Assembly: GCF_048403405.1 (NCBI RefSeq)
Contig: NZ_CP183129.1
DNA length: 64,000 bases
DNA from: Escherichia coli
GTDB taxonomy: Bacteria > Pseudomonadota > Gammaproteobacteria > Enterobacterales > Enterobacteriaceae
Reading direction: 5' to 3' (one strand)
In this document: piece by piece, positions 2,467 through 8,970 of the stretch
How the letters are laid out: the number at the start of each line of letters is the position of its first letter
Numbering within the stretch: the stretch's first letter is position 1
The notes under the pieces: model-generated
What the model was told of the DNA's origin: nothing
The model's input: only the letters and a program-made list of their open reading frames with translations
Databases searched by the model: none
Program-made: the position numbers and the translations under genes

Positions 2467-2937
2467 ATGCTAAGTAACGATATTCTGCGCAGCGTGCGCT
2501 ACATTTTGAAAGCCAATAATAATGACCTGGTGCGTATTCTGGCGCTGGGTAATGTCGAAGCCACCGCGGAACAGATCGCCGTCTGGCTACGTAAAGAAGA
2601 CGAAGAGGGTTTTCAGCGTTGTCCGGACATTGTTTTGTCGTCATTCCTCAATGGCCTGATTTATGAAAAACGCGGCAAGGATGAGTCTGCTCCGGCACTG
2701 GAGCCGGAACGTCGCATTAATAACAACATCGTGCTGAAAAAATTACGCATCGCGTTTTCGCTGAAAACCGATGATATTCTGGCGATCCTCACCGAACAGC
2801 AGTTCCGCGTTTCGATGCCGGAAATTACGGCGATGATGCGTGCACCGGATCATAAAAACTTCCGCGAATGCGGCGATCAATTTTTACGTTATTTTCTGCG
2901 TGGACTGGCAGCGCGCCAGCATGTGAAGAAAAGCTAA
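2467..2937 (+). CDS. yehS: DUF1456-family protein YehS
   Basis: ORF 2410..2937 trimmed to the internal ATG at 2467 (MLSNDILRSVRYIL...), matching the recalled 156-aa YehS; synteny after btsR. Confidence 0.8.
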   Translation: MLSNDILRSVRYILKANNNDLVRILALGNVEATAEQIAVWLRKEDEEGFQRCPDIVLSSFLNGLIYEKRGKDESAPALEPERRINNNIVLKKLRIAFSLKTDDILAILTEQQFRVSMPEITAMMRAPDHKNFRECGDQFLRYFLRGLAARQHVKKS

Positions 2938-2946
2938 GACGGGTAT

Positions 2947-2972
2947 GGCGGCCATGCAAAAACATGGCCGCC
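2947..2972. terminator. bidirectional hairpin between convergent yehS and yehR
   Basis: Perfect 10-bp inverted repeat ggcggccatg / catggccgcc (2947-2956 and 2963-2972) with a caaaaa loop, lying between the two converging stop codons. Confidence 0.6.
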
Positions 2973-2978
2973 GACAGA

Positions 2979-3440
2979 TTATTTCACTTCTTTAAAACCA
3001 GCGGCTTTCATCACCAGTTCCATTTGCGCCATAGTGATACCTTTTTTGGCATCTTCAGCAGAAACGTTGATTCCTGAAATACCCTGCAGGGCTTTGAAAT
3101 CCACTTTTTCCATATCGATAGTCACGTTTTCCTGCGCGTAGGTATCGGTATAGGTTAATTTTTCTTCAACACCCGCGATGTTTTTGTATTTGGCGCTTAA
3201 CGGCTCAAGTGTCTTGGCAGCATCTTCTTTGGTGGTTGCACCAATGGAGGCAAATTGAATTTTGGTTTCAGAAGATTGCTTAAGCACCTTGTCACCTTTG
3301 TAGACATAGGTAATGGCAATTTCAGTACCGTTCAGATTGGCGCTGAATTTTTTCGATTCTTCTTTGTCACCGCAGCCAGCAAGAGAGAAAACCAGAACAG
3401 ATGCAACAACGAGGGAAAACAGCTTATTGAAAGCCTTCAT
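2979..3440 (-). CDS. yehR: lipoprotein YehR (DUF1307)
   Basis: ORF 2979..3452 trimmed to the ATG at 3440 (MKAFNKLFSLVVASVLVFSLAGC); signal peptide with lipobox LAGC. Confidence 0.8.
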   Translation of the reverse strand: MKAFNKLFSLVVASVLVFSLAGCGDKEESKKFSANLNGTEIAITYVYKGDKVLKQSSETKIQFASIGATTKEDAAKTLEPLSAKYKNIAGVEEKLTYTDTYAQENVTIDMEKVDFKALQGISGINVSAEDAKKGITMAQMELVMKAAGFKEVK

Positions 3441-3564
3441 GTAAAACTCCATTTTATTTAATCAAGAAACTGGTGACTCTCACCAGGGGCTATATAGGAT
3501 ATGCCTAATACCGTGGCGTGAGCAGTCCGGAACTGGAGTGGAACTCTTAGTAAAAAGCACTATT

Positions 3565-5565
3565 TCATCCTTGTTGCTGAAGCATGGGGAATAATTGTTC
3601 GCAAAGCAAAACACCGTTATTCATTGCTTCTACCCGTGCCTCGCTTTCTGTATTACGAAATTGTGCCAACACATGTGCCAGCCGATAAAAACCGACCGCG
3701 GTGAGGTCATTCGCCAGCAACTCTGCCTGACCAATAGCACTCTGTTCCTGATAGCGCCAGCCGTTATGGAGCAGTTGAATAAGTAACGCCTGGCAGCGCA
3801 TCAGCAACTGATGAGCGGTAGACGGCACAGGCAAAACGCTGGCAGAAGGTAGCGGTGCCACAGGCGCAGTTTCTGCGTCCAGCGCCCAGGCGCGGGTTTT
3901 TGTCATCATCACCCGTGGTTCCAGTGTCAATTGCCCCTCTACAAAGCTGACAAAGCCAGAAACCAGACTCACGGGGTCGTCTGTTTGTTGCAAAAGCGCC
4001 GCCATGCGTTCAACGGCATAAGGCGCGCTGGCTGAGGCTGGCAGTGATAACGTCAGCAGATTATCTTCACCTTCGCCGCTGATTACCTGCGCATCCAGCG
4101 TCTGGCGGCTGCTATCCCAACCGAGCGAAATACACTCAGCGACCGGCAGAATAAATAAGTTATCGACCTGATTAAGAGGCCGTATGCAGGCGGGAGGACG
4201 CTGGCGTAAATATTCCCGCAAAGCCACAATGCCCGGCTGGCGCAATGGCGCGCTCAACATTTGCCAGGCATCAGGCGACAGCGGCACAACGCTGCTTAAG
4301 CGGTTGCGGGTAGCTAACAGCAGCTCGCCATCGGCACTGCGTTTTGCTGCTTGTGAAACAATTTGCCCGCCCGCCAGTGCGCCAGCCTGAAAACTAAACA
4401 GCCGACGCGTAGCTGCCGGTGAGTTTTCCTGTTCACTTCGCGGCCAACTGCGCGAAAGGTGCAAAATACTGCCGGTGTCGGGATCGGTAAACCAGATGCG
4501 TAAACCATAATGCTCAATATCCTGCCAGCAACGCATACCTAAAGACACCAGCCGCAGATGATCAAGCTTTGCTTCTCCGGCAATGCCAGCGCCAACGACC
4601 GTGCGCCACGGCACAGGAGGAACTTCACCAACACTGTCGCGCCGGGTCATCTCTTGTGCGCAATTTAATCGACTGTTTAATGCCGCAAGCTGACGTAAGC
4701 ATTCTCCGGCATAATAGTGGCTGGCGCGGGCGTGGAAGGCATCAACGCTGGCGCGCAGTTGCCGTAGCGATTCACTCACCCATCGCCAGTTGCAGCGTTC
4801 CGCCGCCTGCTGCGCGCGGCTGAAAGCGGCCTCGTAGTGAATAAGCGGCTGGCTGATGCCGCTCAGCCATAATGCCTGGCTTAGTTGTTGAACATATTGA
4901 CGACACGTTTTGCCTTCTTCGCTGGCAAACGGATCGTCAGATGATGTGACGTGTTCGCTGCGCATCTGCCAGATTAAATGAGTCAATTCCGCTTGCTGCG
5001 CTTTTGCCTGGACAAAGGCCTGTACTGCCAGTACGACATGTTCGCAAAGTGTGCCTTCAATACAATCACAGCGTGCGAAGCGAATGCTGCTGCGGGAATA
5101 AAAACGTACATCGCTCATCGGTAAGCGGGCAGAGGGAATTTCGCCCGGCGTACAGAACAACTCAATGGTGATGCCTTTAGCGACCAGTGCCTGTGCGCGT
5201 TTGCGGGTGGCATCGGGCAGGGTAGCCAGTTCTTCCAGCCAGATTGCCGGATCCCACTCTTCTTCTTTTTCCGTAGGCTGGGTGGTGGCGCAAAGTCGCT
5301 GATAACTTAAAACCAGCATCACGCGATGGCGGCACATGCCGCTGGCCCCGCAGCTGCACTGAGCCTCTTTCAGTGCCTGACCGTTCGCCAGCTGGGTGCG
5401 GACACCGTCACTGAAGGTGGCGATTAAAGCGCCGTTCTCATGGCTGATCTCCGGGACGTTGCCATTTTCCAGTTCCTTAAGACTGCGCTTAACAAAACCG
5501 GCATTGCTTAACGCTGTCAGGGGCTGCGGTGTCAGTTCTAATAATTCCGGACGTAGTGAATTCAT
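3565..5565 (-). CDS. yehQ: SWIM zinc-finger protein YehQ
   Basis: ORF 3565..5589; start chosen at the ATG at 5565, which has a GGAGA SD and overlaps the yehP stop (ATGA). Two CxCx5CxH SWIM-like motifs (CSCGASGMCRH, CDCIEGTLCEH). Confidence 0.75.
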   Translation of the reverse strand: MNSLRPELLELTPQPLTALSNAGFVKRSLKELENGNVPEISHENGALIATFSDGVRTQLANGQALKEAQCSCGASGMCRHRVMLVLSYQRLCATTQPTEKEEEWDPAIWLEELATLPDATRKRAQALVAKGITIELFCTPGEIPSARLPMSDVRFYSRSSIRFARCDCIEGTLCEHVVLAVQAFVQAKAQQAELTHLIWQMRSEHVTSSDDPFASEEGKTCRQYVQQLSQALWLSGISQPLIHYEAAFSRAQQAAERCNWRWVSESLRQLRASVDAFHARASHYYAGECLRQLAALNSRLNCAQEMTRRDSVGEVPPVPWRTVVGAGIAGEAKLDHLRLVSLGMRCWQDIEHYGLRIWFTDPDTGSILHLSRSWPRSEQENSPAATRRLFSFQAGALAGGQIVSQAAKRSADGELLLATRNRLSSVVPLSPDAWQMLSAPLRQPGIVALREYLRQRPPACIRPLNQVDNLFILPVAECISLGWDSSRQTLDAQVISGEGEDNLLTLSLPASASAPYAVERMAALLQQTDDPVSLVSGFVSFVEGQLTLEPRVMMTKTRAWALDAETAPVAPLPSASVLPVPSTAHQLLMRCQALLIQLLHNGWRYQEQSAIGQAELLANDLTAVGFYRLAHVLAQFRNTESEARVEAMNNGVLLCEQLFPMLQQQG

Positions 5566-6698
5566 GACTGAAGATTCTCCGCAAGCCATGATGCCAGCTC
5601 GCCCGGTGTCATGGCGGCTATTTGTGCGCCGACATTAACCAGCGCCTGGGCCGTATCGTGGTCATAGCAAGGTGTTGCGGTGCTATCGAGCGCCGCCAGT
5701 CCCAGTACTTTGATGCCGCTCTGGACACACTTTTTCACCTGATGCGTCAGTAATGATGATGAACCCCCTTCATAAAAATCGCTCACGAGGATAATGACGC
5801 TTTTTGCTGTTTGTTCAATAAGTTGCCGACCATACTCTACGGCACTGGCGATATTGGTTCCGCCGCCTAATTGCACTTTCATTAATAACTCTACCGGATC
5901 GGCAACGTCGGCGGTGAGATCGACGACGCTGGTGTCAAACGCCACCAGATGGGTACGAATGCCGGGTAACTGCCATAAACAGGCCGCCATCACCGCAGAG
6001 TGGATCACCGAGTCAACCATCGATCCGCTTTGATCAACCAGTAAGACCAGTTGCCATTGATCGCTATGGCGCTTAATGCGGCTGTTAAAGCGGGGGGATT
6101 CGATATACAACTTGCCGTGTTGCGGATGCCAGTGTTGCAGGTTGGCACGCAGGGTACTTTTGAAATCGAAATTACGCGCCAGTGGAATAAATGAGCGGCG
6201 ACGGCGATCGCGGACACCAGAAAAAGCCTGGCGAACTTCCTTTGCCAGTCGCGCCATAATCTCTTCAACAACCTGGCGCACTATCCGGCGGGCGGCAGCC
6301 AGCACTTCGGGATTCATCAGATGTTTGGTGTGCAAAACGGCGCGTAGCAGGCTTTCAGAAGGCTGCATACGTTCCAGCACGTCGAGATTCGTCACCACAT
6401 CTTCAATGCCGTAGCGCAGTACGGCATCGCTTTCCAGCCGCTCAATCACCCGTTGCGGAAACAGTGTGTGAATACTGTTGATCCACTCAGGGGTGGTGAA
6501 ATTTGAGTCACCTAATCCACCGGAGCGTTCACCACGCTGGAGCCGTTCAGGATCGCGCCCATACAGCCACTCCAGCGCGTGGTCTATCTGCCGGGCGTTG
6601 TCATCCAGCCCACAAAGCGTCGTTTCTGCCGCTTCGCCAAGAATTAATCGCCAGCGTTGTAGCTCACGGGTGGTCAGAAGATCGTTCAGTTCAGACAT
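5562..6698 (-). CDS. yehP: von Willebrand factor A (VWA) domain protein YehP
   Basis: ORF 5562..6926 trimmed to the ATG at 6698 (MSELNDLLTT..., 378 aa). MIDAS-like motif DQSGSM; start overlaps the yehM stop by 8 nt. Confidence 0.85.
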   Translation of the reverse strand: MSELNDLLTTRELQRWRLILGEAAETTLCGLDDNARQIDHALEWLYGRDPERLQRGERSGGLGDSNFTTPEWINSIHTLFPQRVIERLESDAVLRYGIEDVVTNLDVLERMQPSESLLRAVLHTKHLMNPEVLAAARRIVRQVVEEIMARLAKEVRQAFSGVRDRRRRSFIPLARNFDFKSTLRANLQHWHPQHGKLYIESPRFNSRIKRHSDQWQLVLLVDQSGSMVDSVIHSAVMAACLWQLPGIRTHLVAFDTSVVDLTADVADPVELLMKVQLGGGTNIASAVEYGRQLIEQTAKSVIILVSDFYEGGSSSLLTHQVKKCVQSGIKVLGLAALDSTATPCYDHDTAQALVNVGAQIAAMTPGELASWLAENLQS

Positions 6699-8970
6699 GG
6701 AAAACTCCCCAGTGTTGCAGCGATGCCAGTGCCTGCTGTTCGAGTTGTTGATGATGTGCAATGGCTTGCGGTGGACAATGCAACGGCATTTGCAGCGCTG
6801 AAACGGGAAGCTGTGCGAGCTGGTAATGCTCAAGCACCTGATGCGCCAGCGTCCCGCGTTCTCGTGGTGGTAGCCAGGCCATCGCCGCGCGTAAATCGGG
6901 CAGGGCGTTAATAAAATCGTCGTCACTCAGTTGATTTAAATGACTACTGAAACCGGCGATAAATGCCGGCTGACAGGCCAGTTGATGGCGGGCCAGCGCC
7001 AGCAAACCGTGCAGCGCTTCGCCGGATTGTGCCGGGGATAATTGCGCCAGCATTGTCAGCGCCGCTTCGGCACTGGCGTTGGGATGTTCCAGACGCATCA
7101 GTGCGCCAAGAGCCGCGCCGCGATCCAGCGCCGGGGCATGAATCGCCTGACTGCGGCGCTCCAGTAAGGCTACCGCCGCAGAAAGCGAAACGCCGGGTAA
7201 ATTAACGCCGCTATGTAGATCGCGCAGGATATGGCAAAGCGTCTGCCAGCTATGCAGGTGAGCGTGAAACTCCTTTTCATCTGGTCTGCCGTTAGATTCA
7301 CACAGCCACAGCGTGCGATCGATAGCCGCGCATAACGTCGTTTGTAATATCTGCGCGCCTTGCATACCGCTAATTTCATCCAGCCGCCATAAGGCATATA
7401 GCACTTCCAGCGCCTGGCCCATTTCGGCAAATTGATTTTCCTGGGCGATTAATAATGTGAGTTGCTCCAATAATTGTTGACTGAAGGACGCCAGACCCGC
7501 TAACGCCGCCTGGCTAAGACATGTGGTGATGCAGCCGATTCCACCCGCGTCCAGCATATCGGCTTCTAATTTATGGCGTGCGGCTTCCTGGAGTGTTGCA
7601 CCAAAGCAGGCGGCCTCAATCAATGCCGCATGTTGGCTAAGCGGGCGGGTTAATTTCCAGCGTTCTTCACCGTTGCCTGCAAGTGTCAGTGTACTTCCCT
7701 GCTGGCGCACAACCCCTGGGATCTCCAGTATTACCAGCCGATGTAACACCTGACTTTGCGCCAGTCCATTGGAGTTAAAGCGATTTAAGGTAAGCTCCGC
7801 CGGAAGAGAGATTGCGGTACGTTCCAGTTCGCAGGTGACATCTTTTGGCAGAGGCGGTTGTGGCGTAGAAGGGGCAAGTTTACCGAATCCGTCACCCGCT
7901 AATGTGTCTATCAACGTTAGCAGAATCGGATCGGTATCGGGATGAATAACGCCGCGATAGCTCCACGGCAACGGCGCATTCAGGGCTTCTTTAATCAGCG
8001 ATCCTGCTATGGCATCCAGCCAGTCAGTGCGTAACGGTAGTGTATGACCGCGCAACTGTGCCAGTGCCATCGCATGCAGATGAGCGGCAGCCATATCCGC
8101 GGTCGAAGCAGGCAACTTGTGCTGGCGCAAACGGGTGAGAACCGTTTTTAGCAGTTGTTCTCCCGCCTGCTGTAAGCCCCACTGCCAGCACCAGTTTTGC
8201 CAGACCGGGGCAGGCATTCCTGAAAGGTATCCTGCCAGCACATCAAGGCGCTTTTCACTGTAGGGGGTGAGATAACAACCTGTAACGGCATCATCCAGTA
8301 AGAGCAATTCTGGCGTGTTAATTACCTGCAGACATTCGCGCCACATTTTTGCCAGTGCCGGAGCGTGCCAGCCACCGCAGACAACTAACACGTCGCCATT
8401 ATTTTGCTGCATCGCCCATCCAATCCAGCGGGCCATAAAGGCTTCGCGCTGACGATTGAGAGCATCTCCGGGGGAGTCGCCCCGCAGTTGGGCAAAATAG
8501 TGCGCAAGTGCAGAGGGTAATGCAGTTTGCTGGCTTTCATCTTCGAACAAGTGATCCCACAGGGTGTCGCTGTTATCCATGCGGGTGGCACGCAGCAGCA
8601 AGGTCTGGCTTTCCTCTTGCGTATCAGGCGAATCGTCCTCTTCTTCACTCTGCGCCCAGCAAGGCAAATCGATGAAGTAAGTTTGTGCCTGAATACGACG
8701 AGCGGCTTGTAGCGCCTGCCACTCCGGCGAAAATTCAGCAAATGGCGTCCAGGCACCACGCCCGGGGGCCGCACCGTCCTGATACTGGCAATAACTGTAA
8801 ATAGCTACCGGAAGCTGGTGAGCTAACAACAGTTCGTCTACCCGGTCATTAAAATCAGCCGGGCCTTCAATCAACACGTATCGTGGCCGCTGGCTTTCGA
8901 TTAACGATTTCACCAGCCGGGCGCAGGCCGGACTATGATGCCGGATGCCGACAATTAACGGCTCGCTCAT
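6691..8970 (-). CDS. yehM: uncharacterised protein YehM
   Basis: ORF 6691..9111 trimmed to the ATG at 8970 (MSEPLIVGIRHHS..., 759 aa); operon position between yehL and yehP. Confidence 0.8.
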   Translation of the reverse strand: MSEPLIVGIRHHSPACARLVKSLIESQRPRYVLIEGPADFNDRVDELLLAHQLPVAIYSYCQYQDGAAPGRGAWTPFAEFSPEWQALQAARRIQAQTYFIDLPCWAQSEEEDDSPDTQEESQTLLLRATRMDNSDTLWDHLFEDESQQTALPSALAHYFAQLRGDSPGDALNRQREAFMARWIGWAMQQNNGDVLVVCGGWHAPALAKMWRECLQVINTPELLLLDDAVTGCYLTPYSEKRLDVLAGYLSGMPAPVWQNWCWQWGLQQAGEQLLKTVLTRLRQHKLPASTADMAAAHLHAMALAQLRGHTLPLRTDWLDAIAGSLIKEALNAPLPWSYRGVIHPDTDPILLTLIDTLAGDGFGKLAPSTPQPPLPKDVTCELERTAISLPAELTLNRFNSNGLAQSQVLHRLVILEIPGVVRQQGSTLTLAGNGEERWKLTRPLSQHAALIEAACFGATLQEAARHKLEADMLDAGGIGCITTCLSQAALAGLASFSQQLLEQLTLLIAQENQFAEMGQALEVLYALWRLDEISGMQGAQILQTTLCAAIDRTLWLCESNGRPDEKEFHAHLHSWQTLCHILRDLHSGVNLPGVSLSAAVALLERRSQAIHAPALDRGAALGALMRLEHPNASAEAALTMLAQLSPAQSGEALHGLLALARHQLACQPAFIAGFSSHLNQLSDDDFINALPDLRAAMAWLPPRERGTLAHQVLEHYQLAQLPVSALQMPLHCPPQAIAHHQQLEQQALASLQHWGVFHV

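Follow-up and report, generated by a model that had tools for sequence, protein, structure and literature searches.

Introduction

The genes yehQ and yehR of Escherichia coli follow one another on the same strand, and the short spacer between them holds a small hairpin with a U-rich stretch behind it, which raises the question of whether this element closes the transcript of the upstream operon or belongs to the gene that follows. Working from the window (the whole 64,000-nucleotide stretch of contig NZ_CP183129.1 analysed here), the initial annotation had described the hairpin as either the yehQ terminator, with read-through into yehR, or a leader attenuator for yehR, and had placed any yehR promoter upstream of it. 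Our literature searches on yehR and yehQ returned nothing beyond incidental mentions.

Here we examine the spacer by comparison across the Enterobacteriaceae. The hairpin is a real, conserved and ordinary small element. We read it, tentatively and with a probability of roughly 45%, as belonging to yehR: it would form at the 5' end of an mRNA made from yehR's own promoter, would stabilise that mRNA, and would perhaps also serve as a leaky stop for read-through from yehLMPQ. On this reading the comparison would place the promoter and 5' end of yehR, which is of little importance beyond annotation, and it would show yehR to be an independent ancestral unit, with the yehH-yehQ island as an insertion beside it in Escherichia. 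It also carries a caution, namely that when a hairpin and a short run of U follow a stop codon, they need not be the terminator of the upstream gene. The conserved promoter motif is the sole part that could yield new biology, since its regulator would control a conserved lipoprotein whose function is unknown.

Locus and comparison set

The gene yehQ (3565..5589, minus strand), the last of yehLMPQ, encodes a SWIM zinc-finger protein of 674 aa in the window and ends with the stop codon TGA at 3567..3565. The gene yehR (2979..3440, minus strand) encodes a DUF1307/YehR-family lipoprotein of 153 aa and starts with the ATG at 3440..3438, leaving a yehQ-yehR spacer of 124 nt. Both gene identities were confirmed by the RefSeq annotation of matching E. 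coli genomes. Over 1.2 kb the window matches an O169:H41 strain at 100% identity and nearly every other complete E. coli genome at 95-99%. Its orientation is opposite to that of K-12, for which coordinates refer to NC_000913.3. The comparison set comprised 21 yehR loci from Escherichia, Salmonella, Citrobacter, Superficieibacter, Phytobacter and others, and variation within Escherichia was counted in an alignment of eight sequences (E. coli, cryptic clades, E. whittamii and E. albertii).

The K-12 copy of yehQ (positions 5101-6945 of the K-12 locus, L002) is shortened by an internal stop, and the gene is intact in the window (674 aa). The truncated copy is annotated as a 614-aa CDS in NC_000913.3 (RefSeq) and as a pseudogene in another MG1655 record (PGAP). 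In K-12, 156 nt of formerly coding yehQ lie untranslated past the premature stop, and the distance from there to the yehR ATG is 280 nt.

Sequence and conservation of the hairpin

The hairpin reads ctggtga (3470-3476)-ctc-tcaccag (3480-3486) on the plus strand and CTGGTGA-GAG-TCACCAG (3486..3470) on the minus strand, where it is followed by TTTCTTGATT (3469..3460). As RNA, CUGGUGA-GAG-UCACCAG (3470..3486, minus strand) forms a perfect 7-bp stem with a 3-nt loop and an energy of -8.3 kcal/mol. The stem is followed by a U- and pyrimidine-rich tail, UUUCUUGAUUAA (3458..3469, minus strand), with a polymorphism at position 3467 (T in the window, C in K-12), and 29 nt separate the end of the stem from the yehR ATG. 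The initial annotation had reported a hairpin and U-rich tail about 30 nt before the yehR start, a description that proved exact to the base.

A consensus scan called the hairpin terminator-like (7 pairs, 4 G-C, loop of 3); it found 4 such sites over 1.2 kb, and shuffled sequence gave 1.5 +/- 1.3. Across all 64 kb of the window we counted 23 perfect 7-bp hairpins followed by a T-rich tail, against 3.9 +/- 2.1 in Markov simulations, the count of 23 including nested versions of real terminators. By itself the hairpin pattern is within chance expectation; what raises it above chance is the conservation of its stem against a variable neighbouring spacer. Among the eight aligned Escherichia sequences none of the 14 stem columns varies and the loop varies once, as compared with 37 of the 72 spacer columns that lie outside any recognisable motif (about 51%); the tail varies in 6 of its 12 columns. 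Within E. coli, a rare 3485 T>C variant, which breaks the second stem pair, was found in one strain (record labelled DH5alpha, NZ_CP026085.1). A 72-mer of the window is found exactly in 606 of 5364 E. coli records, and a 50-mer of the K-12 allele in 2824 of the same 5364.

A promoter-like block upstream of the hairpin

Beginning 25 nt after the yehQ stop is a conserved 18-nt motif, ACTCCAGTTCCGGACTGC (3522..3539, minus strand; K-12 2211126-2211143), with the consensus ACTCCATTTyCGGACTGC and with 2 of its 18 columns varying within Escherichia. A predicted -10 hexamer, TATCCT (3496..3501, minus strand; K-12 2211164-2211169), follows CGGACTGC after exactly 20 nt in 20 of the 21 loci. The hexamer is TATTCT in some E. 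coli (window position 3498) and in most other genera, and as TATyCT it keeps A2 and T6 in most loci. The 20 nt between motif and hexamer are exact in length, unconserved and often A+T-rich. A G+C-rich segment (3487..3495, minus strand) then leads from the hexamer to the hairpin, the distance from hexamer to CTGG being 8-9 nt in nearly all loci. A motif whose distance to a -10-like hexamer stays constant across an unconserved spacer has the geometry of a promoter, and the conserved block looks like that of yehR. When the start is placed 5-7 nt after the hexamer, transcription is predicted to begin at about 3491..3489 (K-12 2211174-2211176), within the G+C-rich segment. On comparative grounds, the occurrence of the CGGACTGC-N20-TATyCT block ahead of the hairpin in 20 of 21 loci supports the earlier claim that a yehR promoter lies upstream of the hairpin.

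The block is a poor match to the sigma-70 consensus (3 of 6 for the best -35-like candidate, TGCTCA, and 4 of 6 for TATCCT), and a sigma-70 consensus scan called no promoter in the spacer, which together suggest activator dependence or an unrecognised specificity. The 18-nt motif is presumed to be an activator site or promoter-recognition element. Resemblances to the consensuses of sigma-E, sigma-32, sigma-54, CRP, SlmA, PdhR/FadR, BaeR, RcsB and BtsR were looked for by eye; in each case the spacing or the core bases failed, and the promoter-like block was matched to none of these regulators or sigma factors.

Other positions for a yehR promoter were also considered. The 29 nt downstream of the hairpin hold the SD/ATG block only, and the -10-like strings found there (TAAAAT and TTAAAT) were rejected, as transcripts from them would start inside or after the SD. 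The sequence upstream of the motif likewise yielded no conserved promoter. Conservation begins at the 18-nt motif, directly after non-homologous sequence (the end of yehQ in Escherichia, the metG terminator elsewhere). The T run of the metG terminator ends about 19-75 nt before the motif, and in five loci the gap is 19-30 nt, which leaves little room for another conserved promoter. Neither a mapped yehR start site nor a mapped yehR 3' end was found in the parts covered of the supplements of PMC7815308, PMC6061677, PMC4782308, PMC6131387, PMC4681348, PMC10301672, PMC11092163 and PMC10469882.

At the other end of the leader, the SD/start block ATAAAATGGAGTTTTACATG (3438..3457, minus strand) consists of the SD GGAG at 3450..3447, a 6-nt spacer and the yehR ATG, and none of its 20 columns varies. 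Such invariance over 20 nt is beyond the needs of an SD alone, and the arrangement AAAA-UGGAG-UUUU within the block could display GGA in a small loop. An in-frame ATG (3452; ATGGAGTTTTACATG) lies 12 nt upstream of the yehR start and in Salmonella and MGYG-HGUT-00110 opens a three-codon mini-ORF. Since that mini-ORF ends with TAG or TAA directly before the second ATG, the second ATG is confirmed as the yehR start.

Comparison across the Enterobacteriaceae

A common architecture was found in 20 of the 21 loci: the 18-nt motif, 20 nt, TATyCT, 8-9 nt of G+C-rich sequence, the hairpin, a variable stretch and ATAAAATGGAGTTTTACATG, giving predicted leaders of 53-88 nt. The upstream gene is yehQ in Escherichia only, two Escherichia loci (L007 and L013) having just a C-terminal yehQ remnant. 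In Salmonella, Citrobacter, Superficieibacter, Phytobacter and others it is metG, with a strong GC-hairpin/T-run terminator of its own, and the gene order outside Escherichia is mrp-metG-yehR-yehS-btsR-btsS. Because yehQ precedes yehR only in Escherichia and metG does so elsewhere, the yehH-yehQ island is, as judged from gene order, an Escherichia-specific insertion between metG and yehR.

The hairpin is found at the same position, with its CTGG...CCAG ends, in E. fergusonii, three Citrobacter loci and MGYG-HGUT-00110. The hairpins outside E. coli differ from it in their interior and in how long they are, their loops or inserts measuring 2 to about 30 nt, and the change from CUGGUG/CACCAG in E. 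coli to CUGGCA/UGCCAG amounts to two compensated pairs; in E. fergusonii a longer G+C-rich stem is followed by UGAUAUUUUGAUAUUU. No clear equivalent hairpin was found in Salmonella, Phytobacter or Klebsiella sp. RIT-PI-d, and the folding z-scores of the predicted leaders, taken per species, were unremarkable (-2.7 to +1.2). In Citrobacter spp. and an Enterobacteriaceae isolate the hairpin is present although these loci have no yehQ, the upstream gene being metG followed by a terminator of its own. By this comparison, the position of the hairpin is older than the arrival of yehQ. The U-rich tail is confined to Escherichia, the genus with yehQ upstream, and the corresponding sequence is not U-rich in Citrobacter or MGYG-HGUT-00110.

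A proposed stem-loop at the 5' end of yehR mRNA

From the conservation and promoter-like geometry observed above, the preferred reading can be set out as follows. The gene yehR would be transcribed from its own promoter inside the yehQ-yehR spacer, composed of the motif (3539..3522), the 20-nt spacer and TATCCT (3501..3496). A start at about 3491..3489 would place the hairpin, whose stem begins at 3486, on the predicted 5' end, within the first 20-25 nt or so of the yehR mRNA and with about 3-5 unpaired nt ahead of it. There the stem-loop would most probably hinder 5'-end-dependent decay (RppH / RNase E) of a transcript with a short leader of about 52 nt. Any stabilising effect hinges on the number of unpaired 5' nucleotides, which is uncertain by +/- 2 nt. 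On the rare occasions of yehLMPQ read-through, the hairpin and its U-rich tail may stop a fraction of the polymerases, the others continuing into yehR.

Stabilising stem-loops at mRNA 5' ends are well known in E. coli, the 5' UTR hairpin of ompA being the classic case. The yehR element resembles this type in being a short stem-loop a few nucleotides from the (predicted) 5' end, upstream of the SD and separate from it, and in being conserved while its interior differs between genera. It differs from ompA in its leader length (about 52 nt versus 133 nt), in that the 5' end of yehR is a predicted one, and in the invariance of its stem within Escherichia. In pyrC and pyrD, 5' hairpins form depending on the start site, and the pyrC hairpin sequesters the SD. 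As there, the 5' arm at yehR begins at the start region after a G+C-rich discriminator, so that stem formation could depend on which nucleotide is used as the start. Unlike in pyrC, the yehR SD lies about 20 nt downstream, outside the stem, and we found no evidence for alternative starts.

Quality of the hairpin as a terminator

Among the alternatives, the one that survives best, unlikely in our judgement, is a leaky intrinsic terminator at the end of yehLMPQ: part of the transcripts would be released at the U-rich tail and the remainder would enter yehR, which would also have its own promoter. Like intrinsic terminators, the element is a stem-loop with a U-rich stretch after a stop codon, here that of yehQ. 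It fits the formal terminator pattern of a simple consensus scan, and it is the sole hairpin between the yehQ stop and yehR. The distribution of the tail points the same way, since it is kept in all yehQ-bearing Escherichia species, including E. fergusonii with its longer G+C-rich stem and UGAUAUUUUGAUAUUU, and is missing at loci without yehQ. The Escherichia tails are all U-rich (UUUUGUGAUUUU in E. albertii), which makes some terminator activity plausible.

The element departs from intrinsic terminators in several respects. Its stem, with 7 bp of which 4 are G-C, lies at the bottom of the mapped range, for which median energies of -13.3 to -16.8 kcal/mol and an accepted minimum of -8 have been reported (PMC12207403), and at equilibrium its pairing probability is about 0.2 within 100 nt of read-through context. 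The U tract is interrupted and polymorphic: UUUCUUGA in the window has 5 U in 8 positions with an interruption at position 4, and UUCCUUGA in K-12-type alleles, carried by at least 53% of E. coli records, has 4 in 8 with interruptions at positions 3 and 4. The hexamer after the stem is correspondingly TTTCTT here; K-12 and roughly half of E. coli genomes carry TTCCTT. An uninterrupted U tract of about 7-9 nt directly 3' of the stem is not seen. The hairpin also lies downstream of the predicted promoter of the next gene. Its association with the 3' end of the upstream unit is not conserved, for it occupies the same position at loci where yehQ is absent and no upstream operon needs it for termination.

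In the portion covered of the Term-seq tables of PMC7815308 (Adams et al.), no plus-strand 3' end is listed at K-12 22111xx-22112xx, neighbouring entries being present, and the nearby 3' ends are 2211688(-) and 2211443(-), near yehR/yehS. This is weak evidence against termination, because the upstream operon is H-NS-silenced; yehL and yehM are repressed by H-NS/StpA (PMC3686432), so read-through into yehR should also be rare. As judged from its sequence and distribution, the hairpin would be a poor terminator, at best a weak one for yehQ. Leaky termination of yehLMPQ read-through may occur, and we rank it second to the stabilising stem-loop.

Of the two roles first proposed for the hairpin, that of yehQ terminator thus finds weak support, given the marginal stem, the interrupted, polymorphic and unconserved U tract, and the hairpins that occur without yehQ. 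That of leader attenuator fares no better, the predicted start leaving about 3-5 nt before the stem, too few for a sensor or an antiterminator, with no leader peptide and no Rfam match. On these grounds we consider a sensing attenuator unlikely. Given that start, no antiterminator fold, leader peptide or ligand-binding domain was found upstream of the stem. An Rfam scan of 2900-4100 at E<=10 returned only chance-level matches (eukaryotic snoRNA and miRNA models, SymR), and the fold of the entire spacer (z = -0.25) gave no global structure.

Less probable readings: an operator, a long leader or a chance palindrome

The palindrome might instead act as double-stranded DNA, as an operator for a dimeric regulator that binds on the yehR start site and represses yehR. 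It is a perfect 7-3-7 inverted repeat over the predicted +1..+20, and its stem is strictly invariant across Escherichia, without wobble or compensatory changes, as base-specific contacts would predict; a stem that is invariant and does not covary would be explained just as well by recognition of the sequence itself, for instance by a DNA-binding protein. The spacing of CTGG and CCAG, however, ranges from 6 to about 30 nt in other genera, which is incompatible with one dimeric DNA-binding protein. Among known consensuses, CRP recognises GTGA-N6-TCAC, SlmA GTGA-N4-TCAC and PdhR/FadR TGGT-N3-ACCA. The spacing of the palindrome misfits all three, a comparison that serves as a lead and not as a test. 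We regard the operator as improbable.

We give similarly little credence to a long yehR leader, beginning upstream of the motif or arising by read-through, in which ACUCCAUUUU would mask the SD region AAAAUGGAGU and the hairpin would be an internal riboswitch- or thermometer-like element or a true attenuator. The case for it begins with the first half of the motif, ACTCCATTTT (3530-3539), which on the minus strand is the exact reverse complement of AAAATGGAGT (3445-3454) in the SD block. The complementarity extends over 9-11 nt in E. whittamii, E. albertii, two Citrobacter loci and MGYG-HGUT-00110, with a chance, per 20-mer, of about 0.001 for at least 9 nt and about 0.0003 for at least 10 nt. 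If the RNA includes the motif, GGAG and CUCC are paired in the minimum-energy fold of 16 of 20 loci, and RNAalifold on the long leader returned the anti-SD/SD helix as its only consensus helix. Against this, the helix has a covariation term of -0.03, with double changes in 0 of 6 pairs; no change is compensatory, the SD change AAAACGGAG in S. bongori being uncompensated in the motif, and E. coli retains only 6 nt of complementarity. The exact N20 to the -10-like hexamer, over a spacer that is often A+T-rich, is promoter rather than RNA geometry. The 19-30 nt between metG terminator and motif in five loci, with nothing conserved further upstream, likewise speak against such a leader, as do the Rfam result and the whole-spacer z-score.

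The complementarity is possibly a lead, to an anti-SD acting on read-through transcripts, or a coincidence. At its most ambitious, and as a long shot, the region upstream of yehR could be an undescribed regulatory unit of the Enterobacteriaceae, in which the motif is both the DNA site for a regulator and an anti-SD that silences read-through transcripts. Were this true, only RNAs initiated at the yehR promoter, with the hairpin at their 5' end, would be translated.

Lastly, a functionless chance palindrome, conserved only through overlap with the initially transcribed region of the promoter, is hard to credit: chance alone predicts about four 7-bp hairpins with a T-rich tail in 64 kb and the leader folding z-scores are not significant, but 0 of 14 variable stem positions beside about 51% nearby has a probability of about 5e-5 (0.49^14), and both arms are kept around diverged interiors in other genera.

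Observations downstream of yehR

In Salmonella enterica (L015, 3131-3661) a second DUF1307 gene, of 176 aa, lies directly downstream of yehR; it is absent in S. bongori and E. coli. The hairpin of the convergent yehR/yehS terminator (2938-2978) is GGCGGCCATG-TTTTTG-CATGGCCGCC in the window versus GGCGGTCATG...CATGACCGCC in K-12. This strain's version lacks a T run on the side facing yehR, and the pattern scan did not report it. Within the portion covered of the Adams et al. table, a 3' end antisense to yehR is listed at K-12 2211443 (-), corresponding to about position 3222 of the window on the plus strand, which implies that transcription enters yehR from the yehS side.
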